Below are positions 1 through 13,704 of a stretch of 13,704 nucleotides of DNA, in pieces. The notes below the pieces were generated by a model. It saw nothing but the letters and a program-made list of their open reading frames with translations. It was not told the DNA's origin and did no database searches. A program made the translations under genes and the position numbers. The stretch lies in the IMG/VR virus record IMGVR_UViG_2740892422_000001, positions 1 through 13,704 of that record; one strand, given 5' to 3'. The stretch comes from a virus. Its lineage: Duplodnaviria > Heunggongvirae > Uroviricota > Caudoviricetes. Within the stretch, counting starts at the first letter, position 1; each line of letters opens with the position of its first letter.

Positions 1-20
1 CGAAGGTGAGTTGATGGCTC

Positions 21-332
21 ATGATGTCCCTCTGGGATGCGCTCCGGATGAATATGATGATCTCATATCAGGAACTTGTTCGCACCTTCCTTAACAAAAT
101 CGCAATGCTTGGAACTGAGAAGACAGCGGAAGCTGTGGGCGTTGATAAGTCGCAGATCAGCAGGTGGAAGAGGGACTGGATTCCAAAGTTCTCAATGCTG
201 CTTGCTGTTCTTGAATGGGGTGTCGTTGACGACGACATGGCTCGATTGGCACGACAAGTTGCTTCGATTCTCACCAATAAAAAACGCCCGGCGGCAACCG
301 AGCGTTCTGAACAAATCCAGATGGAATTCTGA
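21..332 (+). CDS. cII: cII-like transcriptional activator; C-terminal ~80 aa match lambda CII as I recall it, N-terminal ~23 aa unrelated
   Basis: ORF translation from LNKIAMLGTEKTAEAVGVDKSQISRWKRDWIPKFSMLLAVLEWGVVDDDMARLARQV...KKRPAATERSEQIQMEF matches lambda CII from memory, including the helix-turn-helix region. Upstream of ~nt 87 the DNA and the N-terminus MMSLWDALRMNMMISYQELVRTF do not match lambda. AGGTGA lies ~11 nt upstream of ATG 21. The true start is uncertain; in-frame ATGs also occur at 24, 48, 54 and 57. Confidence 0.7.
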   Translation: MMSLWDALRMNMMISYQELVRTFLNKIAMLGTEKTAEAVGVDKSQISRWKRDWIPKFSMLLAVLEWGVVDDDMARLARQVASILTNKKRPAATERSEQIQMEF

Positions 333-354
333 GGTCATTACTGGATCTATCAAC
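278..354 (-). ncRNA. oop: oop antisense RNA (lambda OOP), overlapping the 3' end of cII, with its intrinsic terminator
   Basis: Established lambda organisation: the 77-nt oop RNA is transcribed leftward from pO and overlaps the cII 3' end. On the - strand the GC-rich hairpin (RC of ~285-300, cggttgccgccgggcg) followed by a T-run (RC of 279-284) matches the known oop terminator. Coordinates are placed by offset from lambda and are approximate (+/- a few nt). Confidence 0.5.
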
Positions 355-359
355 AGGAG

Positions 360-392
360 TCATTATGACAAATACAGCAAAAATACTCAACT
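360..392 (-). promoter_or_regulatory. pO promoter for oop (-10 CATAAT, -35 TTGAGT on the - strand)
   Basis: Reverse complement of 355-395 reads ccgaagTTGAGTatttttgctgtatttgtCATAATgactcct: 17-nt spacer and -10 ending ~7 nt before the predicted oop 5' end. Consistent with the known lambda pO location at the start of O. Confidence 0.4.
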
Positions 393-1264
393 TCGGCCGA
401 GGTAACTTTGCCGGACAGGAGCGTAATGTGGCAGATCTCGATGATGGTTACGCCAGACTATCAAATATGCTGCTTGAGGCTTATTCAGGCGCAGATCTGA
501 CCAAGCGACAGTTTAAAGTGCTGCTTGCCATTCTGCGTAAAACCTATGGGTGGAATAAACCAATGGACAGAATCACCGATTCTCAACTTAGCGAGATTAC
601 AAAGTTACCTGTCAAACGGTGCAATGAAGCTAAGTTAGAACTCGTCAGAATGAATATTATCAAGCAGCAAGGCGGCATGTTTGGACCAAACAAAAACATC
701 TCAGAATGGTGCATCCCTCAAAACGAGGGAAAATCCCCTAAAACGAGGGATAAAACATCCCTCAAATTGGGGGATTGCTATCCCTCAAAACAGGGGGACA
801 CAAAAGACACTATTACAAAAGAAAAAAGAAAAGATTATTCGTCAGAGAATTCTGGCGAATCCTCTGACCAGCCAGAAAACGACCTTTCTGTGGTGAAACC
901 GGATGCTGCAATTCAGAGCGGCAGCAAGTGGGGGACAGCAGAAGACCTGACCGCCGCAGAGTGGATGTTTGACATGGTGAAGACCATCGCGCCATCAGCC
1001 AGAAAACCGAATTTTGCAGGGTGGGCTAACGATATCCGCCTGATGCGTGAACGTGACGGACGTAACCACCGCGACATGTGCGTGCTGTTCCGCTGGGCAT
1101 GCCAGGACAACTTCTGGTCCGGTAACGTGCTTAGCCCGGCCAAACTCCGCGACAAGTGGACCCAGCTCGAAATCAACCGTAACAAGCAACAGGCAGTCGT
1201 GACAGCCAGCAAACCAAAACTCGACCTGACAAACACAGACTGGATTTACGGGGTGGATCTATGA
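365..1264 (+). CDS. O: Replication initiation protein O (lambda gpO)
   Basis: 299-aa ORF matching lambda O from memory ([40 protein letters not shown]...TDWIYGVDL). RBS AGGAG upstream. Stop overlaps the next ATG (ATGA at 1261-1264) as in lambda O/P. Contains the ori iterons. Confidence 0.97.
713..840. repeat. ori-lambda: four ~19-bp iterons (each an internal inverted repeat tccctc...gaggga) followed by an AT-rich unwinding region
   Basis: Seen directly: catccctcaaaacgaggga (712-730), aatcccctaaaacgaggga (732-750), acatccctcaaattggggga (~754-773), tatccctcaaaacaggggga (~780-799), then A/T-rich caaaagacactattacaaaagaaaaaagaaaagattattc (800-840). This is the classical O-binding origin inside the O coding sequence. 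Confidence 0.9.
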
Positions 1265-2079
1265 AAAACATCGCCGCACAGATGGTTAACTTTGACCGTG
1301 AGCAGATGCGTAGGATCGCCAACAACATGCCGGAACAGTACGACGAAAAGCCGCAGGTAAGCCGTATTCTGGCGATTACGACAAGCGATGAGAAATGCCT
1401 GCAGACTGCATCCAGAGATGATTTGGCATCAAAACTGAAAACCGCCGGATATTCACGCAGTTTTATTCAGTATTCATCGGGTAATAAATACGCTGCGTTA
1501 TCTGCATTTGGCCGGGCATTCACGGTTAATTTCAATGGCAGTAATACCGCGATTACGCTCAAGTTTAAGCATGAGCCGGGGGTCGGGTATGAAACACTGA
1601 CAGTCAGCCAGGCATCGGCACTTGATGCAAAAAACTGCAATGTGTTCGTGTACTACCAGAATGATACAGCTATCCTCCAGCAGGGAGTGATGGCTAACGG
1701 CGATTTCTTTGATGAACGCCACGGCCTGGACTGGTTACAGAATTATGTGCAGACCAGCCTCTATAACCTGCTTTATACCAGCACCACGAAAGTTCCCCAG
1801 ACTGAAGCCGGTATTACCCGACTGTTATCAAATGTTGAAAAATCACTGGATCAGGCCGTTCAGAATGGACTGATTGCTCCGGGCGTATGGAACGGGGGCG
1901 ACCTTGGTCAGTTGTCATCAGGTGACACACTGCCCAAAGGTTATTACGTATACGCTCAGCCGCTGGATGAACAGGCTCAATCAGAACGTGAAGCCCGTAA
2001 GGCTCCGGTGATTCAGGCTGCAATAAAACTTGCAGGCGCGGTTCATTACGCTGACGTACAGATTAACGTTGTTCGCTAA
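1261..2079 (+). CDS. In-frame fusion ORF: lambda P N-terminal ~32 aa joined to the C-terminal ~240 aa of a tail-sheath-like protein
   Basis: First 32 aa ([33 protein letters not shown]) match lambda P; at nt ~1359 the sequence diverges and the remainder ([12 protein letters not shown]...[45 protein letters not shown]) resembles a C-terminal sheath domain by composition and by its position immediately upstream of a tube gene. Sheath proteins of this type are about twice this length, so the N-terminal half appears to be missing. The sheath assignment is from memory, not an alignment. Confidence 0.55.
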
Positions 2080-2089
2080 GGGGAAGTGA

Positions 2090-2530
2090 ATGTCTACCTA
2101 TTCTTTTATGGATGTCACTGCGACGCTGACCGGGCCGACAGGTTCGATTGACCTCGGGTACGGTTCGGCAAGTTCTGAAGAGGGGATTGTGGTTGCGATG
2201 GGCGGTCCTAAAAACACCATGACCATCGGTGCTGATGGCGAAGTGATGCACAGTCTCCATGCAGATAAAAGCGGGACGATTACCGTTAACCTTCTGAAGA
2301 CATCACCGACAAATAAAAAATTGTCGCTGGCGTATAACGCACAGAGCCAGTCTTCTGCCACATGGGGGAATAACGTTATCGTGATCCGCAACAAGATCAG
2401 CGGTGACATCATCACGGCACGCAGTGTTGCGTTCCAGAAACAACCGGATAACGCCAACGCTAAAACCGGTAATACGATGCCGTGGGTGTTTGACTGCGGC
2501 AAGATTGACCAGGTTCTCGGGGAGTTTTAA
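2090..2530 (+). CDS. Tail tube protein (Mu gpM-like)
   Basis: 146-aa ORF directly after the sheath-like ORF and before the chaperone and tape measure genes. RBS AGGGGAAG upstream of ATG 2090. Size and position are typical of a myophage tube protein. Confidence 0.6.
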   Translation: MSTYSFMDVTATLTGPTGSIDLGYGSASSEEGIVVAMGGPKNTMTIGADGEVMHSLHADKSGTITVNLLKTSPTNKKLSLAYNAQSQSSATWGNNVIVIRNKISGDIITARSVAFQKQPDNANAKTGNTMPWVFDCGKIDQVLGEF

Positions 2531-2533
2531 TGC

Positions 2534-2986
2534 ATGGAATTCGAAATTAAAGGCGTGAAATATCGCACGGCAAAACTCAGCGTTTTTGACCAGCTGAAAG
2601 TGACCCGCAAACTTCTGCCGGTGCTGGCAGGAATGATGTCAGATTTCGGGAGTATTCGCTCCCGTTTGCCTGCTGACGGCAAAATCGACACCGTGAAATT
2701 CGAACAGTTAAAACCGGTGTTTGAAACCATGCTCCCGCGTATCGCTGAGGAACTGTCTTCCCTGACCGAAGATGACACCGATGCGATTATTCATCCCTGT
2801 CTTGCGGTGGTATCGCGGCGTCATATGGACGGATGGGTGCCGGTATTTACCCAGGGTGAACTGATGTTTGATGATATTGACCTGCTGGTCATGCTGCAAC
2901 TGGTGGCGCGGGTGGTCGCCGATTCGCTGGGAAATTTTTTGCCTACACCCCTTACCAGCACGACGCAGAGCCTGCAACAGGGCTGA
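2534..2986 (+). CDS. Tail assembly chaperone (lambda G-like, upstream frame)
   Basis: 150-aa ORF between the tube and tape measure genes, RBS GGGGAG ~10 nt upstream. A slippery heptamer near its 3' end and an open -1 frame downstream (next feature) fit the conserved chaperone arrangement. Confidence 0.6.
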   Translation: MEFEIKGVKYRTAKLSVFDQLKVTRKLLPVLAGMMSDFGSIRSRLPADGKIDTVKFEQLKPVFETMLPRIAEELSSLTEDDTDAIIHPCLAVVSRRHMDGWVPVFTQGELMFDDIDLLVMLQLVARVVADSLGNFLPTPLTSTTQSLQQG

Positions 2987-3174
2987 CGTTTAACAGCCTG
3001 CCGGACGGGCTGTCCTACCTTCTCAATCCGGTTGACGCCGGGTTAATTCCTTATACAGCACTTAAAGATGGCTCTGTCGATTTGTATGACATTGCTCTCT
3101 TGAATGACCATCTGGCGGTAAAAGCGGATAACCAGCGACGCATTGAGAAATGGAGAGAGGATAATGAACGCTGA
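2534..3174 (+). CDS. Tail assembly chaperone -1 frameshift product (G-T-like): frame 0 from 2534 to the slip site 2929-2935, then the -1 frame to TGA at 3172-3174
   Basis: Seen directly: G_GGA_AAT heptamer at 2929-2935 (lambda G/GT uses G_GGA_AAG) followed by a T-run. The -1 frame is open from at least 2881 to 3174 and encodes a protein-like extension (...FNSLPDGLSYLLNPVDAGLIPYTALKDGSVDLYDIALLNDHLAVKADNQRRIEKWREDNER). The extension ends just inside the tape measure gene start, as expected. Confidence 0.5.
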
Positions 3175-5152
3175 AACTATTAAAGATTTCCTCGTCTCGC
3201 TTGGCTTCAGTGTGGATGATGCAGGAGCGAAAAAGTTCGGTTCTGTCCTCGCCGGTACAACTGCAAATGTCATCAAAATGGGGCTGGCTGTTGAAGGAGC
3301 TGCGCTGTCCGTGGTGGCCTTCACGGCTAAGATCGCCTCCGGCCTGGATAATCTTTACTGGGCGTCACAGCGCACCGGCGCGACAGTCCAGGGAATTCAG
3401 TCTATTGGCTATGCGGTTTCGCAGGTTGGCGGCAGCGTGGACGCTGCGCGATCTTCTCTGGAAAGCCTCTCCCGGTTTATTCGTAACAATCCCGGTGCAG
3501 AAGGCTTTCTGAATCGCCTGGGCGTACAGACCCGTGATGCCAGCGGTAACATGCGTGACATGGCCGCTATTTTTACGGGCGTTGGACAGAAACTCAGCAG
3601 CATGCCGTATTACCGGGCTAACCAGTATGCGCAGATGCTGGGCATTGACGAAAATACCCTTATGGCGATGCGCCGGGGTGTGGGTGGCTTCTCCGGGCAG
3701 TACAGCGCAATGGCGAAAGCTATCGGCTTCAATGCTGACGAGGCGGCCAGAAGCTCCAACAAATTTATGACCTCCCTGCGTGAGTTTGGCGCGATGGCAG
3801 GCATGGCCCGTGACAAAATCGGCTCTAATCTTGCGGGGGGGCTTGCGGGTTCGCTGGACACCCTGCGCCGCCATATCCTGGACAACTTCCCTCGTATCGA
3901 GCAGACCCTGACGAAAGCCATAAAAGGCATTCTGGCGCTCGGGGATATTATCGGGCGGCTGTTCTTCAGACTGATTGAGGGGACATCAGGCCTTATCACC
4001 TGGTGGCAATCGCTGGATAAGCAAACGCGGGAGTTGATCTCGCTGTTTGGCGCACTGACGATTGCGCTGCGCATTCTGAACAGTACGTTCTGGATGTCGC
4101 CGATTGGCCTCATTACCGCGCTGGCGGCGGGTATTGCCCTCCTGTGGGAGGACTATCAGACCTGGAAGGAAGGCGGCGACAGCCTGATTGACTGGGGCAA
4201 GTGGAAACCGGAGGTCGATGCCGCGCTGAAGATGGTTCGTGACCTTAAAACGACCGTTAACGACCTGGTGAAAGCGCTGGCGAAACTGCTCAATATTGAC
4301 CCCAAATCATGGTCCCTGAAGTGGGATTTCAGCAACTTCATCGACCAGATGGGCGAATTCAGCAAAATGCTGAACATGATCGCTGACCTGCTCAACGCTA
4401 TCAAAGATGGCCGCTGGGCTGATGCCGTCAGCATCGGCAAACAGATACTTAATCAGGGCAGCGAAAATCCGTCAGCGATGCCGATGGTTACAGACAGCGC
4501 TAACAGTACTGCCGACTGGATTAAAGAGCACTGGGGATTAGATCCCCGCAGTGTGGGCCGGACGGTACGCGGCTGGTTTGGTGATGATGAGCCGGAACAA
4601 CATGCACAGGCTACGAAACGAGGAGAACGGAATAACAATCCGGGAAACCTTAATTTTGCTGGTCAGGCAGGGGCTTCTCTTGAACGCCCGGGCGGGCGAT
4701 TTGCCAGATTTGAAACTGCCTTTGATGGATTACGGGCTCTTGCTCGTCAGTTAATGCTGTACGCCGGACGGGGAATAAACAGTGTGGAGAAAATTATCTC
4801 TACCTGGGCACCTGCGTCTGATAATAACAACACAACTGCGTATATCAGGGCTGTATCGCAACGACTGGGAGTGGATCCCCGGGCTGCCCTGAATATGAGC
4901 GATCCGCAAACCATGTCAGCATTGATGAGCAGCATTATCCAGCATGAGAATGGAAGAAATATCTATTCTCGGGAGCTGATTAATAAGGCTGCCGTGGCGG
5001 GAATTAGTGGCAAAGTGACAGAGGTTAACCAGCAGAATACCTACCACATTTACGGTGGCGGAGATCCGCACGCTGTCGGTAATGAGGTTGCACGTCGGCA
5101 ACAGTCTGCAAATGCTCAGGTCATGCGAAGTAATCAGGTGAGGGTGGGTTAG
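3164..5152 (+). CDS. Tail tape measure protein
   Basis: Long ORF (662 aa from ATG 3164; an alternative ATG at 3143 lacks an RBS) directly downstream of the chaperone pair. GGAGAGAGG RBS. Alanine/glycine-rich helical N-terminal part, a hydrophobic segment (LISLFGALTIALRILNSTFWMSPIGLITALAAGIALLW) and a distinct C-terminal globular region. Position and composition are typical of a tape measure protein. Confidence 0.85.
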   Translation: MNAETIKDFLVSLGFSVDDAGAKKFGSVLAGTTANVIKMGLAVEGAALSVVAFTAKIASGLDNLYWASQRTGATVQGIQSIGYAVSQVGGSVDAARSSLESLSRFIRNNPGAEGFLNRLGVQTRDASGNMRDMAAIFTGVGQKLSSMPYYRANQYAQMLGIDENTLMAMRRGVGGFSGQYSAMAKAIGFNADEAARSSNKFMTSLREFGAMAGMARDKIGSNLAGGLAGSLDTLRRHILDNFPRIEQTLTKAIKGILALGDIIGRLFFRLIEGTSGLITWWQSLDKQTRELISLFGALTIALRILNSTFWMSPIGLITALAAGIALLWEDYQTWKEGGDSLIDWGKWKPEVDAALKMVRDLKTTVNDLVKALAKLLNIDPKSWSLKWDFSNFIDQMGEFSKMLNMIADLLNAIKDGRWADAVSIGKQILNQGSENPSAMPMVTDSANSTADWIKEHWGLDPRSVGRTVRGWFGDDEPEQHAQATKRGERNNNPGNLNFAGQAGASLERPGGRFARFETAFDGLRALARQLMLYAGRGINSVEKIISTWAPASDNNNTTAYIRAVSQRLGVDPRAALNMSDPQTMSALMSSIIQHENGRNIYSRELINKAAVAGISGKVTEVNQQNTYHIYGGGDPHAVGNEVARRQQSANAQVMRSNQVRVG

Positions 5153-5739
5153 TGGATATTCTCTCTACACTTTTTCATCAGCAGAGCAGAAAAATAGGAA
5201 TGATTGTTCCCAGTGTTGTTATTTCAGAGAAGCATACAGATATGCTTGAAATAACCGAGCATCCGGTAGAGGTCGGGGCCGCTGTCGCTGATCATGCCTA
5301 TAAAAAACCGTCAGAAGTGGTGATGGAGGTTGGTTTCGCCGGTGGCGGCGCATTGCTGGATTTTGCCAGTAACCTGACGGCTACCAGCCTGCTCGGCCTG
5401 AGTCCTCAGCAGACGTATCAGGAGCTACTGGATCTGCAGGAAAGCCGTATCCCCTTCGATGTGGTAACCGGTAAACGGCTGTACAGCAACATGTTGATCC
5501 GGGCGCTGGAAGTGACGACGGACAAGACAACCGAAAACGTCCTGTCCGCCGTCCTCACCCTGAGGGAGGTCATTATCTCCCGGACACAGCAGATTACCGT
5601 CGCGGATAAAACCAACATGAAGGAAGGGGCCAGCACGTCGGCGGTACAGAACAGCGGCAACAAAACCACAAAACCTCCAGATACTTCACTGCTGAAAAGC
5701 ATCACGGGTAACGTGGCGTCATTACTGGGGGGCGGCTAA
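5152..5739 (+). CDS. Tail/baseplate protein, family not resolved
   Basis: 195-aa ORF with GTG start overlapping the tape measure stop (TAGTG), RBS GGTGAGGGTGG. It sits between tape measure and hub genes where Mu-like modules carry distal tail proteins. Assignment by synteny only. Confidence 0.45.
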   Translation: MDILSTLFHQQSRKIGMIVPSVVISEKHTDMLEITEHPVEVGAAVADHAYKKPSEVVMEVGFAGGGALLDFASNLTATSLLGLSPQQTYQELLDLQESRIPFDVVTGKRLYSNMLIRALEVTTDKTTENVLSAVLTLREVIISRTQQITVADKTNMKEGASTSAVQNSGNKTTKPPDTSLLKSITGNVASLLGGG

Positions 5740-6041
5740 TGACAATTCAGGAAATTCCGCTGACAGCGGACAACCAGCAGTTCAGCATCGTCCTGGGTGG
5801 TGTCACCTGGCGGATTAGCATCATATGGCGCGATCTGTACTGGATTATGGACCTGCAGAACGACAGAGGGGAGCCGGTAATCTCCGGTATTCCTCTCGTC
5901 ACTGGTGCTGACCTGCTGGCGCAGTACGCCTGTATGGGGCTTGGTTTTAAGCTGGTGGTGGTCTGTGATGACAACACACAGGATTACCCCACAAAAACTG
6001 ACCTGGGCGGTCGCAGCCATTTACTGGTATCAACGGAGTAA
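5739..6041 (+). CDS. Small tail/baseplate protein, family not resolved
   Basis: 100-aa ORF with ATG overlapping the upstream stop (TAATG), translationally coupled within the tail operon. Assignment by synteny only. Confidence 0.4.
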   Translation: MTIQEIPLTADNQQFSIVLGGVTWRISIIWRDLYWIMDLQNDRGEPVISGIPLVTGADLLAQYACMGLGFKLVVVCDDNTQDYPTKTDLGGRSHLLVSTE

Positions 6042-6043
6042 GC

Positions 6044-7105
6044 ATGTCACAGAACTGGATGAGACATTTCGAGCTGCAGCTTGTGGACGGGAACGGTCAG
6101 GGAATTGAGCTAAGTGATTTTAAAGTCACCTTTACGATCGACTGGTTCAACATCAGCAGCGCGTCCCGGGTAGGGACTATCAAAATTTATAACCTCTCGG
6201 CAGATACTGTGAACCGAATCACCGGGCAGGAGTTTTCGAAAGTGCGTCTGATTGCCGGTTACGACGGTATCGCGCCGGAGGTGTCGGCAAGCGACGTCGG
6301 GACCGTGCGGGAAGTTGACGCGGCGGACGTGGGTCAGAGTGATGGCCGCAACTACGGACTGATTTTCAGCGGTGAAATTCGCTACTCGGTCACAGGAAAA
6401 GACAGTCCGGTTGATTCCTACGTCCTGATTCAGGCAGCAGATACTGATCTGGCTTTTGCCACCAGTATAACCTCACAGACGCTGGCTGCCGGTTACACGG
6501 TCGCTGATGTAAACCGTGCGCTGATGAAAGACTTCGAAGCCAAAGGCGCGACCGAAGGCCTGACGCCTGAAATGCCTGCTACTGTATTCCCCCGGGGGCG
6601 GGTACTCTTTGGCATGACGCGGCATCTAATGGATAACGTAGCCGGGCAATGTGGCGCAACATGGCAATTCGTGGACGGTCAGCGCCAGATGGTGGCGAAT
6701 AACGAATATGTTCATGAAGCGATTGTGCTCAACAGCGCTACCGGGCTTATTGGCATGCCGCAGCAGACTATCGGTAACGGCGTAAACGTCCGCGCGCTTA
6801 TTAATCCGAACATCCGGGTTAACGGACTTATTCAGCTGGATCAGGCTTCCGTGTATCGTACCGCCTTGTCGAACAACGATATTGCGATGGCTGGTGGTCA
6901 GATCACCGACCAGAACACGGATGGAAATATCACGCTAAGCGGCACCACATCGCAGCCTGCCAGCATCGCAACGGATGGCGTTTATATTGTGCGCGGGATT
7001 ATGTACACTGGCGACACAAGGGGCCAGGCGTGGTACATGGATATGATGTGCGAAGCGCGTGGCGCGGCGGATCTGTATACGCGATCGGCTTTGCAAAGGG
7101 GATGA
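6044..7105 (+). CDS. Baseplate hub-like protein (Mu gpP / P2 gpD-like by position and size)
   Basis: 353-aa ORF, RBS ACGGAG, located after the tape measure and distal tail proteins and before the spike and wedge genes. Family assignment is inferred from synteny and size. Confidence 0.5.
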   Translation: MSQNWMRHFELQLVDGNGQGIELSDFKVTFTIDWFNISSASRVGTIKIYNLSADTVNRITGQEFSKVRLIAGYDGIAPEVSASDVGTVREVDAADVGQSDGRNYGLIFSGEIRYSVTGKDSPVDSYVLIQAADTDLAFATSITSQTLAAGYTVADVNRALMKDFEAKGATEGLTPEMPATVFPRGRVLFGMTRHLMDNVAGQCGATWQFVDGQRQMVANNEYVHEAIVLNSATGLIGMPQQTIGNGVNVRALINPNIRVNGLIQLDQASVYRTALSNNDIAMAGGQITDQNTDGNITLSGTTSQPASIATDGVYIVRGIMYTGDTRGQAWYMDMMCEARGAADLYTRSALQRG

Positions 7106-7108
7106 GCA

Positions 7109-7450
7109 ATGAGGGGTATTATTTTTCTGTTAGCTGTCTTTTCTGCGTGCAGCGCGTGGGCGGATGGCTTCACGGTTAAATGCGGTGGCTACACTATGGT
7201 TGCAAACCAGGGCGAGTTATCGACTATCAACGGTGAAAGAGTTACCTCTCAAAAAATCACCGAACTGGGTACCAATGGTTTGAAAGTAGACATGGGGCTT
7301 ATGCCTGCCAAAGACGGTAACAACTACGGCTTTGAATACATTCGTCGCCCTGGTACCGAAACGCGATTCCTGAATGTCCAGCTTCTGCAGAACAGCATGG
7401 ATGCGCCGAAAATCATCGGATCTTTCCCTTGTAAAAAAGTGGCTGGGTGA
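7109..7450 (+). CDS. Small secreted protein or lipoprotein (113 aa) with N-terminal signal peptide; accessory (moron-like) gene
   Basis: N-terminus MRGIIFLLAVFSACSAWADG has a positive n-region, a hydrophobic core and an AWA-like signal peptidase I site; an alternative lipobox-like FSAC is present. The start is coupled to the hub gene stop (RBS GGGGATGAG). GC content looks lower than in the flanking tail genes. No structural-protein counterpart is expected at this position. Confidence 0.6.
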   Translation: MRGIIFLLAVFSACSAWADGFTVKCGGYTMVANQGELSTINGERVTSQKITELGTNGLKVDMGLMPAKDGNNYGFEYIRRPGTETRFLNVQLLQNSMDAPKIIGSFPCKKVAG

Positions 7451-7476
7451 AGGTAACCTGAAATTCGTAACGCCTG

Positions 7477-7515
7477 AAAAACAACAAAATGTGCTCTAAA
7501 AACTGTTGTTTTTTG
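7477..7515 (+). terminator. AT-rich hairpin followed by a T-run (weak intrinsic-terminator-like element or regulatory inverted repeat)
   Basis: Perfect 10-bp inverted repeat aaaaacaaca (7477-7486) / tgttgttttt (7504-7513) with a 17-nt loop and trailing T-run, 27 nt after the signal-peptide gene stop. The stem is A/T-only, so terminator strength is doubtful. Confidence 0.3.
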
Positions 7516-7543
7516 AGACGAGCGATTACACTGCACTGACTTT

Positions 7544-7572
7544 TTGATGGTGGATTGCCATCGATATGCTAC
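7544..7572 (+). promoter_or_regulatory. Candidate sigma70-like promoter for the two-gene cassette
   Basis: TTGATG (7544-7549), 15-nt spacer, TATGCT (7565-7570) in the 150-bp intergenic region; AGGA RBS ~12 nt before ATG 7600. This is a weak match to consensus and is a prediction only. Confidence 0.25.
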
Positions 7573-7599
7573 TTCATTAAAGCCAGGAATAACTAAAAC

Positions 7600-8331
7600 A
7601 TGAGTTTAGCGCAGCCAAAATCAGGAGAACTGTTAGATCTTCTGACTCCTTCATTAACTAAGGGTGAAAACCTTCTGAGTGAGTTTGAAATCCATCGAAT
7701 CATTCGTGAAGCGAAGAAACTACCTGAACGTTATCAGGGGCTATCAATTGAAGGCTTAGCTAAGCTTGTTCTTGGTGAAATAGATGAAGGATGTTCACTC
7801 TGTGAGCGGGGGTTGAGAATAGCGCCTAACGATCCAGTTTCTTTTTGTAACTATACGATTGCGCTGCGTAACTTAGGTTTGCATGCTCGCCAGTATGTGA
7901 TGATTCAGAAAGCATCTGATTCACTTAATCCAACGATATTGGCTGAGGTTGCTACAATTTCTGCATACTGGGTTGATATCGATTTGCTTGAAAAGGTGAT
8001 GCCGATGCTAACTGCAATGGAAGTACCGCGCCCTGAAGATATGGGCAAATGGTATGACACGCTCAATTATCTGCATACCCAAAAAGATCATGCTCAGGAG
8101 CTAAAAACTATTGGGCGGCTCATGATGAACGTTGCAGAAAAGTACCGCGCTCGTCTTGCTGGCGCTCATGCTTTTTATGTAATGTCAGAACTTGATACGC
8201 TGTTCGTTGAAGTCAAAACAGACGATCCAGTGCTTCTTTCGCAGATGAATAATGCCTTGGCTGATGAGATTATTATTGCGGGGCTTGCGGATTCAGAATG
8301 CGTCGGATGCTTTGAAGCCGGGGAACTCTAA
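7600..8331 (+). CDS. Hypothetical protein A of the accessory two-gene cassette (243 aa); TPR-like helical repeat signature and two CxxC pairs
   Basis: ORF with AT-richer codon usage than the flanking tail genes. ERGLRIAPNDPVSFCNYTIALRNLGLHARQYVMIQKA fits a TPR-like consensus. CSLC near residue 65 and CVGC near the C-terminus could form a Zn site. No recognisable phage structural family. Confidence 0.7.
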   Translation: MSLAQPKSGELLDLLTPSLTKGENLLSEFEIHRIIREAKKLPERYQGLSIEGLAKLVLGEIDEGCSLCERGLRIAPNDPVSFCNYTIALRNLGLHARQYVMIQKASDSLNPTILAEVATISAYWVDIDLLEKVMPMLTAMEVPRPEDMGKWYDTLNYLHTQKDHAQELKTIGRLMMNVAEKYRARLAGAHAFYVMSELDTLFVEVKTDDPVLLSQMNNALADEIIIAGLADSECVGCFEAGEL

Positions 8332-8759
8332 TGTCGGTTGAGCATACCTGTTTTCTTGAATTGGCTAAGCATTCCCTGGCTCTAAACGGTGAGATGTGGA
8401 CGAGAAATGCTATTAGCCGAGCATACTATGGTATGTACCATTCCGCCTTACGGATCACCAACAATCTGGTACCGACCGCTACACAAGATGGTGAAAAACT
8501 AAAAGGTGGAGTTCACATGCGAGTCTATACGGCCTTTTGTAGTGGTGAGGCAGCTGCACTTAACGATGTTGATGTTAACGCAGTAAAGAAAATCGGCGTT
8601 AAACTGAAAATGACGCATGCCCAACGTGTTAATTCTGATTACAAGCTTGAGCGGAAAATCAACCGGATTACCGCGAGAAGTGTAATTCTGGATGCGGAAG
8701 AGGTCGATGCAATCGTTAATCAATTACTGAAGATTGGTGATGACTCGTTAACTGCATAA
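8331..8759 (+). CDS. Hypothetical protein B of the accessory two-gene cassette (142 aa); small helical protein with an R-x6-H segment (HEPN-like possibility, unverified)
   Basis: ATG overlaps the stop of protein A (TAATG), RBS GGGGAA, so the two are translationally coupled. Segment NAISRAYYGMYHSALRI contains R-x6-H and resembles the first helices of HEPN-type domains, but the canonical motif placement is not confirmed. Followed by a strong terminator. Confidence 0.7.
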   Translation: MSVEHTCFLELAKHSLALNGEMWTRNAISRAYYGMYHSALRITNNLVPTATQDGEKLKGGVHMRVYTAFCSGEAAALNDVDVNAVKKIGVKLKMTHAQRVNSDYKLERKINRITARSVILDAEEVDAIVNQLLKIGDDSLTA

Positions 8760-8823: not shown

Positions 8824-9576
8824 ATGGCAGTATCTGACCAGACCCGCAGCGGCGACCTTGCCGAAACATTTAAATCTGAACGGGAAACAACAAAGAACCA
8901 GATCCGTGTCGCCTTGCCTGGCATTGTTCAGTCATTCGCTCCTGATGCGGTGACGGCGGTTGTACAGCCTGCTATCCGTTACGTTGAAATTGATAACGAC
9001 GGCAACCGCATTACCAAAAATTACCCATTGCTGGTGGATGTGCCAGTGGTATTCCCGCGTGGCGGAGGCTGTACGCTAACGTTTCCAGTTAAAGCCGGTG
9101 ATGAATGTTTGGTGATTTTTGCCGATCGTTGTATTGATTTCTGGTGGCAGAGTGGCGGGATACAGGAGCCGGTCGATGACAGAATGCATGATTTATCGGA
9201 TGCGTTTTGTATTGTCGGTCCCCAGTCGCAGGCAAGGAAGATTAGCGGTATTAATACCAGTGCCACACAGTTGCGTAGTGATGACGGCAGCACCTATTTT
9301 GAGCTTAATCCTGATACCAGGAAAATTAAAATTGTCGCTCCGGGTGGTCTTGATGTGGTTGCCCCTCTGGCTGATTTTTCTGAGAAAGTAACCATTCATG
9401 GCCTGTTAACCTGGATGGGGGGCATGGTGGGGTCTGTTGTTTCTGGTGTGGCTTCAAAAATCACTGGTGTTGTTGAGTTTTTGGGTAGCGTGAAGGCTAA
9501 CGGCAAGCCAATCGATAATACGCACACTCATGGTGGTGTTCAGCGCGGTGGAAGCAGTACCGACGGGGTAAACTGA
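8824..9576 (+). CDS. Baseplate spike protein (gpV / Mu gp45-like)
   Basis: 250-aa ORF. The C-terminal region contains HTHGG (an HxH motif typical of the metal-binding spike apex of gpV/gp5-type proteins). Position is immediately upstream of gp25/W-like and baseplate J genes. Confidence 0.75.
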   Translation: MAVSDQTRSGDLAETFKSERETTKNQIRVALPGIVQSFAPDAVTAVVQPAIRYVEIDNDGNRITKNYPLLVDVPVVFPRGGGCTLTFPVKAGDECLVIFADRCIDFWWQSGGIQEPVDDRMHDLSDAFCIVGPQSQARKISGINTSATQLRSDDGSTYFELNPDTRKIKIVAPGGLDVVAPLADFSEKVTIHGLLTWMGGMVGSVVSGVASKITGVVEFLGSVKANGKPIDNTHTHGGVQRGGSSTDGVN

Positions 9577-9929
9577 TGCGATACAGACGTGAAGACGCCG
9601 ATGGCGATTACACCTTTGGCAGCGGTGATGACACCTGGCTGATTAACTCACCGGATGCCGTGGCACAGGCGGTAAAAACGCGATTCGAATTGTGGTATGG
9701 GCAATGGTTTCTCGACACCACCGAAGGGACTCCGTGGATCCAGTCCGTACTCGGTAAGCAGAAGCCGGAAACCTACAACCTGGCGATCCGTAAGCGCATC
9801 CTCGAAACGCGGGGCGTTAAATCAATCCTCTCTTTCAATACGACGGTGGATACCACGACCCGACGTGTCATGTTTTCCGCTGAAATCGACACTCTTTATG
9901 GAATAACGACTGTTACATCGGAGGCGTAA
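9576..9929 (+). CDS. Baseplate wedge protein (GPW/gp25-like, Mu gp46-like)
   Basis: 117-aa ORF, start overlapping the spike stop (TGATG). Size and position between the spike and baseplate J genes are typical of the gp25/W family. Confidence 0.65.
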   Translation: MRYRREDADGDYTFGSGDDTWLINSPDAVAQAVKTRFELWYGQWFLDTTEGTPWIQSVLGKQKPETYNLAIRKRILETRGVKSILSFNTTVDTTTRRVMFSAEIDTLYGITTVTSEA

Positions 9930-11128
9930 TGGCTCTGAACCTTGATTCTCTCGGTTTATCTGCAAAGGTAACCGCGGAGGGGATCAGTGCGCCTGATTAT
10001 CAGACGATACTCAGCACCCTGATTAGCTATTTTCAGCAGATTTATGGCAGTGATGCCTACCTCGAACCGGACAGCAAAGACGGCCAGATGGTGGCTCTGA
10101 TGGCGCTGGCGATTCATGATGCCAATAATACTGCGATAACTGTCTACAACTGTTTTTCACCGGCAACCGGCTATGGGGCTGCACTGACCAGTAACGTGAA
10201 AATAAATGGTATTTCACGTAAAGGTGCGACGAACTCTACGGTTGATTTGCTTCTTACAGGAACTGCCGGAACAACCATCATTAATGGCAGCGTGAAAGAC
10301 AGTAATAATGTGATATGGCGTTTGCCTGCTTCAGTGGTGGTCGGCGTGGATGGTACAGTGATGGCGACCGCAACATGTTCTGTCAGTGGTGCAGTGGCGG
10401 CGCTGGATGGAACTATCACTGAAATTAATACGCCAACCCGTGGCTGGGTTTCGGTAACCAATCCTGCTGCGGCTACTGTGGGCACTCCGGCAGAAACTGA
10501 TGCGGAGTTACGTATCCGACAGTCGCAAAGTGTTGCGTTGCCATCAATAACCCCATTTGAAGCACTGGATGGTGCTGTTTCTAATGTTACCGGTGTAACC
10601 CGCCACAAACTCTATGAAAACGATAATGGTTCGGAGGACGGTAACGGGTTACCGCCACACTCTGTTGCTGTAATTGTGGATGGCGGTGATGTGACGGATA
10701 TTGCTCAGGCTATCAGAGGGAATAAAGGCCAGGGGACAGCCACTCACGGTACAACATTCGTTACGGTTCCGGATAAATACGGCAATCCCCATGTAATCAA
10801 ATTCTCGCGTTCCAGTGATGTGCCTGTTTATGCCCGGATTAAATTAAAAGTTTTTACGGGTTATACCTCACAGATAGGGCAGCAGATCCAGCAGGCTATT
10901 TCCGACTATATCAATAGTCTGATGATTGGTGATTCGGTCCTTTTAAGTCGCATTTACTCACCGGCGAATCTTGGCGTGGTGAGTGGCGGGAATGCACGCT
11001 ATTACGATATTCAGGAACTGACGATTGGGAAATCCCCGGGGGCTTTGTCGTCATCAAACATTGATATCAGATACAACGAATCCGCGTCCTGTACCCCGGA
11101 AAATATCGTTATAACGGTGGAGTCATGA
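9929..11128 (+). CDS. Baseplate J-like protein (Mu gp47 / P2 gpJ family)
   Basis: 399-aa ORF, ATG overlapping the upstream stop (TAATG). Size and synteny (after the gp25-like gene, before the gp48-like and tail fiber genes) fit the baseplate J family. The intact length contrasts with the split J remnants I recall in E. coli e14. Confidence 0.8.
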   Translation: MALNLDSLGLSAKVTAEGISAPDYQTILSTLISYFQQIYGSDAYLEPDSKDGQMVALMALAIHDANNTAITVYNCFSPATGYGAALTSNVKINGISRKGATNSTVDLLLTGTAGTTIINGSVKDSNNVIWRLPASVVVGVDGTVMATATCSVSGAVAALDGTITEINTPTRGWVSVTNPAAATVGTPAETDAELRIRQSQSVALPSITPFEALDGAVSNVTGVTRHKLYENDNGSEDGNGLPPHSVAVIVDGGDVTDIAQAIRGNKGQGTATHGTTFVTVPDKYGNPHVIKFSRSSDVPVYARIKLKVFTGYTSQIGQQIQQAISDYINSLMIGDSVLLSRIYSPANLGVVSGGNARYYDIQELTIGKSPGALSSSNIDIRYNESASCTPENIVITVES

Positions 11129-11805
11129 GCAAATACACCGAACTAATCACGAACTACCACGCCACCAAACCTAAATTTCTTGCACATGTTGATCTGATGA
11201 CCCGGCCGCTTATTGATGTTGCGGCTGCCACCAGAGGGCTGATTACTGCATTTGATATTGACTCTGCGGTTGGTGTGCAACTTGACATTCTGGGATTGTG
11301 GATCGGACGTAGCCGTGTTGTCAGCCAGCCTATTTCAGGTGTCTATTTCAGCTGGGATACCGACGGGCTTGGATATGATCAGGGTGTATGGCAGGGGCCA
11401 TACGATCCTGATTCCGGATACATGTACCTCAGCGATGAAACTTATCGTGTCATCCTTAAAGCGAAGATTGCGATTAATAACTGGGACGGACGGAATGATT
11501 CGCTTCCGGCAATTCTTGACGCGGCAACAGCAGGATCCGGACTGCGAATGCAGATAGTCGATAACCAGGACATGACGATATCGGTCTGGGTCTTTCCTGA
11601 TACTGATATTTCAGATGTATCGCGTGAGTTAATTGCGGCAATTAAACAGGGGTATCTCACAGTAAAAGCCGCCGGGGTATGGGCGGGTGGCATTGAAACA
11701 CCTTCGGTGGAAACCCCATCGGAAGGCTCAAAATTTTTTGGTTTTGATATGGATAACGAATTCATCAGTGGTTTTGATGTAGGAGCATGGGGAGTATTAC
11801 TCTGA
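11125..11805 (+). CDS. Baseplate/tail-fiber-proximal protein (Mu gp48-like; the family I recall as DUF2313/YmfQ)
   Basis: 226-aa ORF coupled by ATGA overlap to baseplate J. It occupies the position of Mu gp48 between baseplate J and the tail fiber. Confidence 0.65.
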
Positions 11806-12599
11806 TGGCGAAAAATGACTTTAAAGCGTTTGCAACGGATCGAAATGCCAATGTTATATCGCAGGAGGAATGGGAAGCGTTGCCCGCGCTTTTATCTGGA
11901 TTTACAGCAGGGAAAGCCTCCAGTGCGCAAGTCAATAAGGTTATTCGGCAGGCCAGCTTTATTGCTGCAGCTCTGGCCCAGTTTGTAAGTGACAAAACGC
12001 AACGGGATGTACTTGATAATGGTGATCTGCCCGGTTTTGTTGAATTGCTGGGATCGGGGTTTGCTGTTGAATACCTGAGCCGCAAGAATCCGTTTGGCGA
12101 TATCAAATCGGACGGCACGGTGAAAACGGCTCTCGAAAACCTTGGTTTGGGAGAAGGTGCTCCAGCTATTGGCGTTCCGTTCTTCTGGCCCTCCGCGGCA
12201 ATGCCAAATACTGTAATCGACAGCTGGTCCGGTATGGTGTTTTTGAAGTTCAACGGGGCGAAATTTTCTGCCTCTGATTACCCTGTGCTGGCGAAAGTGT
12301 TTCCTTCGCTGGTATTACCTGAAGCCCGCGGTGATTTCATTCGTATCTGGGATGATGGGCGAGGGGCGGACAGTGGGCGAGCATTATTAAGCTGGCAGGC
12401 AGCAACAGCTTTATCGCAATTTGGCGGTAATTATCCAGAAGGGTCCGGCCATGCGATTGCTGATTACGATGGAATATCAGCACACCAACCAGGTTTCTCT
12501 CGATTTCAGTACACCAGTAACTCAGTAGGAGATGGTGTTAATTTTATTGCCGTCAGACCACGTAACATTGCATTTAACTTTCTGGTGAGGGCTAAATAA
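11805..12599 (+). CDS. Tail fiber protein (constant N-terminal part plus variable C-terminal part)
   Basis: ATG at 11805 overlaps the upstream stop (TGATG) and has GGGGAG ~10 nt upstream; the ORF track's 11787 start lacks RBS spacing. It is followed immediately by a tail fiber assembly gene coupled by TAATG. A hix/gix-like site lies at codons ~109-117. Confidence 0.75.
12131..12156. other. Candidate Gin/Hin/Pin-family invertase crossover site inside the tail fiber gene
   Basis: Sequence ctctcGAAAACCttGGTTTggGAgAA is an imperfect palindrome closely resembling hixL (TTCTTGAAAACCAAGGTTTTTGATAA) and gix as recalled; about 19 of 24 half-site positions match hixL. Its placement inside the fiber gene upstream of the fiber-assembly pair matches Mu G and P1 C segment architecture. 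Confidence 0.4.
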
Positions 12600-13192
12600 T
12601 GAAACCTGTTTTTGATGAAAATGGACTGGCTACAGTGCCGGGTGATATGCGTTGTTTTTATTATGATGCAGTAACGTATGAATATACGGGCTGGTCTGAT
12701 GAATATATTAATACTGGTGTAAGTATGCCCGCCTGTTCCACTGGTATTGACCCTGGCGAAAACATTCCGGGAAAAGTGGCTGTATTTACAGGTAAGGGAT
12801 GGAGCCATGAAGAGGACCATCGCAATGAGACTGTTTACTCAATCGAAAATGGCGCAGCTGTTACAGTGGATTATATCGGTGCCATCAAAAACGGTTATGT
12901 CACGCTTTCACCGTTAACGCCATATGATAAATGGGATGGTGAGAAATGGGTGACAGATACTGAGGCACAACACAGTGCCGCAGTAGAAGCGGCAGAAGCA
13001 CAGCGCCAGTCACTGATTGATGCAGCAATGGCTTCCATTAGTCTGATTCAGCTGAAATTACAGGCCGGGCGGAAACTGACGCAGGCAGAAACAACCCGGC
13101 TTAACGCTGTGCTGGATTACATTGACGCGGTGACGGCAACAGATACCAGCACCGCGCCGGATGTCATCTGGCCTGAACTGCCGGAGGCGTAG
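12599..13192 (+). CDS. Tail fiber assembly protein (Tfa / Mu U-like)
   Basis: 197-aa ORF. The C-terminus LNAVLDYIDAVTATDTSTAPDVIWPELPEA carries the conserved C-terminal motif of the tail-fiber-assembly family. Start coupled to the tail fiber stop. Confidence 0.8.
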   Translation: MKPVFDENGLATVPGDMRCFYYDAVTYEYTGWSDEYINTGVSMPACSTGIDPGENIPGKVAVFTGKGWSHEEDHRNETVYSIENGAAVTVDYIGAIKNGYVTLSPLTPYDKWDGEKWVTDTEAQHSAAVEAAEAQRQSLIDAAMASISLIQLKLQAGRKLTQAETTRLNAVLDYIDAVTATDTSTAPDVIWPELPEA

Positions 13193-13604
13193 GCCATTCA
13201 ATATCTGGCGCACCGGAAGTATCGACCAGCTCCAGTGCGTCCAGATAATCCAGCCACAAATTATATTGCGCCAGTTCCTCACCTTTCAGGCGACCAATCG
13301 CCGCTTTACCAGGCCATTGTTTACTGTTCATATAATCGTTGGCCTGATTAATCAGTTGCTGCTTTTCCAGTTCGGCTGCAGCAATCTGTTCCTCATGTGT
13401 TGGTGGTGGAATTTCAGACCATGCAGGAAAACCATTTTCTCCAGCGATACGGATTTTTCCTTTCGGCGGTAATCCGGAAAACTCAATATACACCTGCTCA
13501 TCAACTTCGACAGCATCATCTGGCCATGAGTCAGCTTGAATGTAATCCTCTTTCATCTCCAGCGGATAGAAAGAGTTTGTAGTCGCGGAATATATGTAAT
13601 TCAT
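13164..13604 (-). CDS. Alternative tail fiber assembly protein (Tfa', Mu U'-like) on the opposite strand
   Basis: 146-aa - strand ORF whose C-terminus (NLWLDYLDALELVDTSGAPDIEWPTPPAVQAR) carries the same family motif as the + strand Tfa. Its 3' end overlaps the + strand tfa 3' end by 29 bp (convergent). Confidence 0.8.
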   Translation of the reverse strand: MNYIYSATTNSFYPLEMKEDYIQADSWPDDAVEVDEQVYIEFSGLPPKGKIRIAGENGFPAWSEIPPPTHEEQIAAAELEKQQLINQANDYMNSKQWPGKAAIGRLKGEELAQYNLWLDYLDALELVDTSGAPDIEWPTPPAVQAR

Positions 13605-13625
13605 TTTTCAGGTGATGCTGCCAAC

Positions 13626-13704
13626 TTACTGATTTAGTGTATGATGGTGTTTTTGAGGTGCTCCAGTGGCTTCTGTTTCTATCAGCTGTCCCTCCTGTTC
13701 AGCT
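13626..13704 (-). CDS. 3' end of a - strand ORF entering from beyond the window (probable alternative tail fiber variable domain)
   Basis: The - strand frame is open from the window edge to TAA (RC of 13626-13628), encoding ...AEQEGQLIETEATGAPQKHHHTLNQ*, and ends 22 nt upstream of the Tfa' start. Only 25 codons are visible, so identity is inferred from position. Confidence 0.3.
   Translation of the reverse strand, partial: AEQEGQLIETEATGAPQKHHHTLNQ

Follow-up and report, generated by a model that had tools for sequence, protein, structure and literature searches.

Apparent microhomology deletion in a defective Escherichia coli-type prophage, joining a lambda-type P gene in frame to the 3′ part of a tail sheath gene

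The window analysed here, a stretch of 13,704 nucleotides that makes up the whole of contig JRGC01000269.1 (draft assembly GCA_000754855.1), carries an in-frame fusion of the 5′ end of a lambda-type helicase loader gene, P, to the C-terminal part of a contractile tail sheath gene. We consider it highly probable (roughly 85%) that the fusion arose by a recent illegitimate-recombination deletion within one defective prophage, and that the deletion is real. The fusion open reading frame (ORF) runs through 272 codons with no interruption, and its start codon overlaps the stop codon of the replication initiator gene O in the motif ATGA (1261-1264). Residues 1-33 of the product are those of P, and residues 33-272, read in the same frame, are those of a tail sheath protein. 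The features that meet at the join are as follows.

365-1264, plus strand: replication initiator gene O, lambda-type, full length
1261-2079, plus strand: fusion ORF, 272 codons
1261-1359, plus strand: helicase loader gene P, codons 1-33
1357-1359, plus strand: deletion junction, GTA at both parental breakpoints
1357-2079, plus strand: tail sheath gene (DUF3383; E217 gp31/Pam3 gp13-type), codons 142-381 and stop codon

We located the breakpoints by a three-way alignment of the window with an intact P gene and an intact sheath gene. The join is seamless. The lambda-type side reads through ...CCGCAGGTA, the sheath side begins GTAAGCCGT..., and the only bases they have in common are GTA, the Val codon at 1357-1359, which is shared by both parental breakpoints as a 3-bp microhomology. 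The DNA match to P-bearing genomes ends at 1359 and the match to sheath genes begins at 1357; a BLAST match on the left side reached 1362 rather than 1359 because a one-base gap was opened in the alignment. The in-frame junction of P to the sheath, and a breakpoint of the lambda-type sequence at about 1359, had been proposed in an initial annotation made from the window, and both are confirmed by the uninterrupted ORF and by the matches on its two sides. The 32 codons attributed there to P do originate from P, though their number becomes 33 if the shared Val codon is included. By our estimate, a 3-bp microhomology would be expected in about 5% of random joins, which places it weakly above a blunt random join, and one-third of random events would be expected to keep the frame. 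Neither the microhomology nor the in-frame join, thus, needs a special explanation.

The P portion of the fusion is short. Residues 1-33 are identical to lambda P in PDB entry 6bbm_V and to P of the intact relative MEI1A-0323. In phmmer, the fusion product aligns with 6bbm_V (233 aa) over positions 1-40 and is identical to it up to residue 33; identity to P of MEI1A-0323 in BLASTP ends at the same point. The fusion ORF gave no Pfam match to the P family at E≤0.01. The helicase loader is thus incomplete, with residues 1-33 only, as compared with the full-length protein of about 233 aa that includes the DnaB-binding C-terminal part. The O gene, in front of it, matches PF04492 (E=5.6e-36), has 99.5-99.8% DNA identity to O of the intact relatives and contains the four origin iterons, which are four 20-nt direct repeats at 713-799. 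Between cII and O (281-353, minus strand), at the position of the lambda oop RNA, there is a promoter-like site and a strong terminator-like hairpin. Searched against Rfam over its full length, this oop-like position included, the window matched no family at the gathering score.

The relation of residues 33-272 to tail sheaths, which the initial annotation had put forward, was checked against several resources. Their alignment to residues 142-381 of the 381-aa DUF3383 sheath protein WP_000046915.1 is ungapped, with 98% identity. The Pfam match (PF11863, E=2.4e-74) covers model positions 239-493 of 493 only, and the match to PHROG 205 ‘tail sheath’ (E=1.8e-89) covers positions 203-433 of 455. 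Of the solved sheaths, 7kh1 gp6 (E=3.5e-33) and that of Pam3 (8hdr, E=2.9e-12) match over their C-terminal parts. On these matches, the sheath part of the fusion is a member of the DUF3383 family, of the E217 gp31/Pam3 gp13 type (the E217/Pam3/XM1-type sheaths). It is not a complete subunit, as it begins at residue 142 of 381 and has lost the N-terminal strand together with most of the N-terminal domain. The loss amounts to 141 residues (the first 423 nt of the gene), not the approximately 250 estimated earlier, because the native sheath has 381 aa whereas the Pfam model has 493 positions. In the Pam3 sheath (384 aa), the N-terminal strand of a subunit, the C-terminus of its neighbour and two strands of the next ring form an interlaced four-stranded sheet (PMC9942802). 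The truncated sheath would probably be unable to polymerise, since its first 141 residues, including the inter-subunit strand, are gone. The earlier proposal that such a truncation precludes a contractile tail is, thus, supported by the loss of the strand used in the Pam3-type inter-subunit β-sheet (PMC9942802).

To which element did the two halves belong? All close relatives of the window are from E. coli, with identities to E. coli prophages of 99.5-99.8% for the left flank and 98-99.7% for the right flank. In two intact relatives both flanks lie in one prophage, in the same order and on the same strand.

09A19CPO009 (L007, NZ_CM148343.1): left flank 99.8%, right flank 98.0-98.2%, 15,927 bp between the breakpoints
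MEI1A-0323 (L002, NZ_CM149601.1): left flank 99.5%, right flank 99.4% near the junction and 96.6-97.0% over the tail module, 16,199 bp between the breakpoints

These two prophages and the induced phage vB_EcoM-606R2 (ON470579) share their gene order with the window, from cII through O to the truncated P and from the truncated sheath to the tail fibre, at 96.6-99.8% DNA identity. They differ from it in two respects: their cII is uninterrupted, and P codon 33 is separated from sheath codon 142 by 15.9-16.2 kb of further DNA. As the intact relatives carry both flanks colinearly with about 16 kb between them, the window is most probably a deletion derivative, in line with the large deletion in a defective prophage that was among the initial suggestions. 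The parent is not lambda itself but a temperate myovirus of mosaic make-up, in which immunity and replication genes of lambda type are combined with a contractile tail of the E217/Pam3/XM1 type.

Since lambda-type O and P genes are present in 3,000-4,400 of 5,426 E. coli genomes, frequently as multiple copies, and some relatives of the tail module (L001) have a different replication module, the two flanks might have come from separate prophages, one lambda-like and the other an unrelated myovirus, brought together by recombination with deletion or rearrangement of the chromosome between them. In 09A19CPO009 and in MEI1A-0323, however, one prophage supplies the best matches to both flanks, with exactly the order and orientation found in the window, and a single deletion within a prophage requires fewer assumptions. 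We consider an origin from two prophages very unlikely.

The deleted interval accounts for everything that the window lacks. In MEI1A-0323 it comprises the rest of P, 26 coding sequences, two tRNA genes and the first 423 nt of the sheath gene. The first genes are ren, ninB, a DNA methyltransferase, ninE, ninF, ninG, a Ser/Thr phosphatase and the antiterminator Q; Q is followed by tRNA-Asn, tRNA-Thr, holin, endolysin, Rz/Rz1-type genes, the small and large terminase and portal; and the last are head morphogenesis, scaffold-like, cement, major capsid (DUF2184), head-tail and neck terminator genes. We found no Q, holin, endolysin, terminase, portal or capsid genes between O and the tail genes of the window, and all of these lie within the interval deleted from the relatives' arrangement. 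The list of absent genes drawn up initially (the rest of P, the late regulator, lysis, terminase and head genes, and the 5′ part of the sheath gene) is thus borne out in full by the 15.9-16.2 kb interval.

Downstream of the junction, the tail genes from tube to hub-like protein (2090-7105) are colinear with those of relatives L001, L004, L006 and L007 at 98-99%. The genes of the whole tail module, from gene calls and Pfam matches, with PHROG matches for the fibre genes and the cargo slot, are listed below.

2090-2530, plus strand: tube
2534-2986, plus strand: assembly chaperone
3010-3174, plus strand: DUF6889 protein
3164-5152, plus strand: tape measure/lytic transglycosylase
5152-5739, plus strand: baseplate protein
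5739-6041, plus strand: plug
6044-7105, plus strand: hub-like protein
7109-8759, plus strand: variable cargo slot between the hub-like and spike genes, three genes (113, 243 and 142 aa) in PHROGs of unknown function
8824-9576: spike
9576-9929: sheath initiator
9929-11128: baseplate J
11125-11805: wedge
11805-12599: tail fibre
12599-13192, plus strand: tail fibre assembly gene
13164-13604, minus strand: second tail fibre assembly gene, convergent with the first and overlapping it

The 16 genes that follow the junction all have the same lengths as in the annotation of the relatives, and those from the tube to the tail fibre assembly gene are 96.6-98.8% identical to their counterparts there. Because of these unchanged lengths, and because the flanks are nearly identical to those of the intact relatives, the event looks recent on the sequence.

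We asked how often the junction occurs. An exact look-up among about 15 billion proteins found the 272-aa protein, and the junction with it, in this one contig only. None of 5,426 complete E. coli genomes matched at least 80% of positions 1100-1700, while each flank separately is found in thousands of E. coli genomes. Searches of GTDB representative genomes with a 28-mer and a 22-mer did not find the junction, and no match spanned it among metagenome contigs, IMG/VR, GenBank phages and PLSDB plasmids.

Although the junction is confined to one contig in these collections, prophages of the same type have lost the same region elsewhere. In the closed genome of HCM-22C-2 (L005, NZ_AP038228.1; 7620-8244), ren runs straight into a truncated head-tail gene, and the sheath gene is intact. 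In that of LR-46 (L006, NZ_AP027537.1; 10057-10720 and 12584-13082), a truncated ninB is joined to a truncated portal gene, and a second deletion lies between cement and capsid. Like the window, both have lost Q, the lysis and terminase genes and some or all of the head genes, and have kept the early and tail modules. Unlike the window, they have other breakpoints and a full-length sheath gene. From these end points, the two deletions are independent of that in the window. Deletions at other end points in two closed genomes mean, therefore, that such deletions really occur in this prophage type, and suggest that its late-regulator, lysis and packaging block has been lost repeatedly. That the repeated loss of Q, lysis and packaging genes with retention of the tail genes reflects selection rather than neutral decay is a reading of very low probability.

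These observations bear on whether the junction could be an artefact, in which case the prophage of the sequenced genome would be intact and the 5′ end of P would have been joined to the middle of the sheath gene by the assembler or through a chimeric read. That the junction and its protein are confined, in all collections searched, to one short contig of a draft assembly would fit such an error. Three shared bases, however, cannot mislead an overlap or k-mer assembler, and a chimeric read would form a low-coverage branch against two true paths of high coverage. Moreover, by our estimate, the probability that a random join would fall in the same prophage of about 45 kb, colinear, downstream and in the same orientation, would be less than about 1%. 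Together with the real deletions of the same region in HCM-22C-2 and LR-46, this makes an assembly chimera unlikely.

An engineered junction, which had been considered at first, or a fusion selected for a function, might be suggested by the in-frame join, by the retained translational coupling of O to P, by the intact state of all the downstream tail genes and by the recurrence of late-region deletions in this prophage type. A sheath fragment could, for example, block the tails of superinfecting relatives, or the tail genes could have come under early control. However, one-third of random joins would be in frame anyway, and the fusion is present on one contig only, with no sign of spread or conservation. 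The deletions of HCM-22C-2 and LR-46, with their other end points, keep the sheath at full length, and an insertion sequence (IS) cuts the operon upstream (see below). At the join itself we saw no linker, restriction site, scar, IS remnant, vector or other foreign sequence; we rejected engineering on the absence of scar or vector sequence, and nothing else points to it. Taken as one reading, an engineered or selected fusion is very improbable. The same holds for the more specific idea that the fusion is expressed and benefits the host, for instance as a defective sheath subunit that interferes with the assembly of tails by superinfecting phages of its type, or that the retained tail module is under selection, to which we attach very little probability.

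The upstream lesion is an insertion of ISKpn26 in cII, which is also the reason why the contig has its left end at this point.

1-90, minus strand: terminal 90 bp of ISKpn26 (IS5 family), with which the contig begins on its left side; the inverted repeat runs up to position 90
91-332, plus strand: 3′ part of lambda-type cII, from alignment with the intact cII of MEI1A-0323, with a Pfam Phage_CII match over residues 22-97

Positions 1-90 are 100% identical to positions 20203-20292 of relative L004, beside an annotated ISKpn26 transposase, and to plasmid copies of ISKpn26; 3865 records contain this sequence at an identity of at least 99%. The boundary between the IS and cII lies at 90|91 and is flanked by TTAA, with the first 52 nt of cII removed. 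IS5 elements prefer YTAR as a target. The assignment to ISKpn26 comes from the identical terminal sequence and the adjoining YTAR-type target TTAA, with one IS end on the contig. An ORF of 103 aa at 21-332 begins within the IS sequence, and is an artefact of the IS::cII join rather than a native protein. The insertion is a second, independent lesion of the element. Because ISKpn26 separates O and the truncated P from everything upstream, transcription of the fusion and tail genes from the early promoter should not be assumed. The proposal that the tail genes were placed directly downstream of the early replication operon, therefore, stands as far as the order of the sequence is concerned, as they follow O, but does not extend to early-promoter control. 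The same IS explains one match that seemed to put the left flank near the sheath gene: what is shared there is the end of ISKpn26, and we rejected it as a related deletion.

We propose that the DNA from P codon 34 through sheath codon 141, about 16 kb, was lost when two GTA triplets underwent a single illegitimate recombination. The frame would have been kept by chance, giving the P(1-33)::sheath(142-381) ORF, which would still be translationally coupled to O. From what is established for lambda, the origin within O would be unable to load the host helicase, as the helicase loader is missing. With Q, holin and endolysin, terminase, portal and capsid gone, there would be no late transcription, lysis, packaging or heads. 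Polymerisation of the sheath, from what is known of contractile tails, would be impossible for a subunit that lacks its N-terminal strand and the greater part of its N-terminal domain. The product of the fusion ORF is, thus, most likely that of a pseudogene and without function.

Deletion and IS insertion are the general pattern by which cryptic E. coli prophages decay (review PMC6379469), and the window is a case of this ordinary decay rather than a new system. It resembles the internally deleted lambdoid prophages DLP12, Rac and Qin, in which some modules are kept, genes for lytic growth are deleted, breakpoints fall within genes and additional IS elements are present. In contrast to these, the late region of its parent encodes a contractile tail and not a lambda-type siphovirus tail; the end points of the deletion and the P::sheath ORF are unique to this contig. 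R-type tailocins, such as the R-pyocins, which are domesticated headless contractile tails, likewise keep tail and baseplate genes without capsid and packaging genes. However, a tailocin has an intact sheath and its own regulator and lysis genes, whereas the element in the window has a shortened sheath, retains neither a lysis cassette nor a late regulator, and gives no sign of being conserved. The truncated sheath and the absent lysis genes rule out a tailocin.

In practice, the 272-aa ORF calls for annotation as a fusion pseudogene, neither as a DUF3383 protein nor as a replication protein, and the element is best counted among non-inducible prophage remnants. It provides a base-resolved example of a temperate phage disabled by one microhomology deletion and an IS insertion; its importance beyond annotation is small.

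Two regions of the tail module vary or rearrange among the relatives. The three genes of the cargo slot (7109-8759) gave nothing significant in Pfam, PADLOC and PDB sequence searches; the 142-aa protein has a weak match to HEPN_IX (E=0.009). The same cargo genes are present in relatives L004-L007, and L001 and L002 hold others; DUF2335 is an example from the slot of the relatives. At the other end of the module, the contig stops inside a segment that is invertible in the relatives, and its last 94 bases have no match to the closest relative. The convergent fibre assembly genes (region 12599-13704) have the arrangement seen in relatives, whose invertible tail-fibre segments are under the control of pinE.
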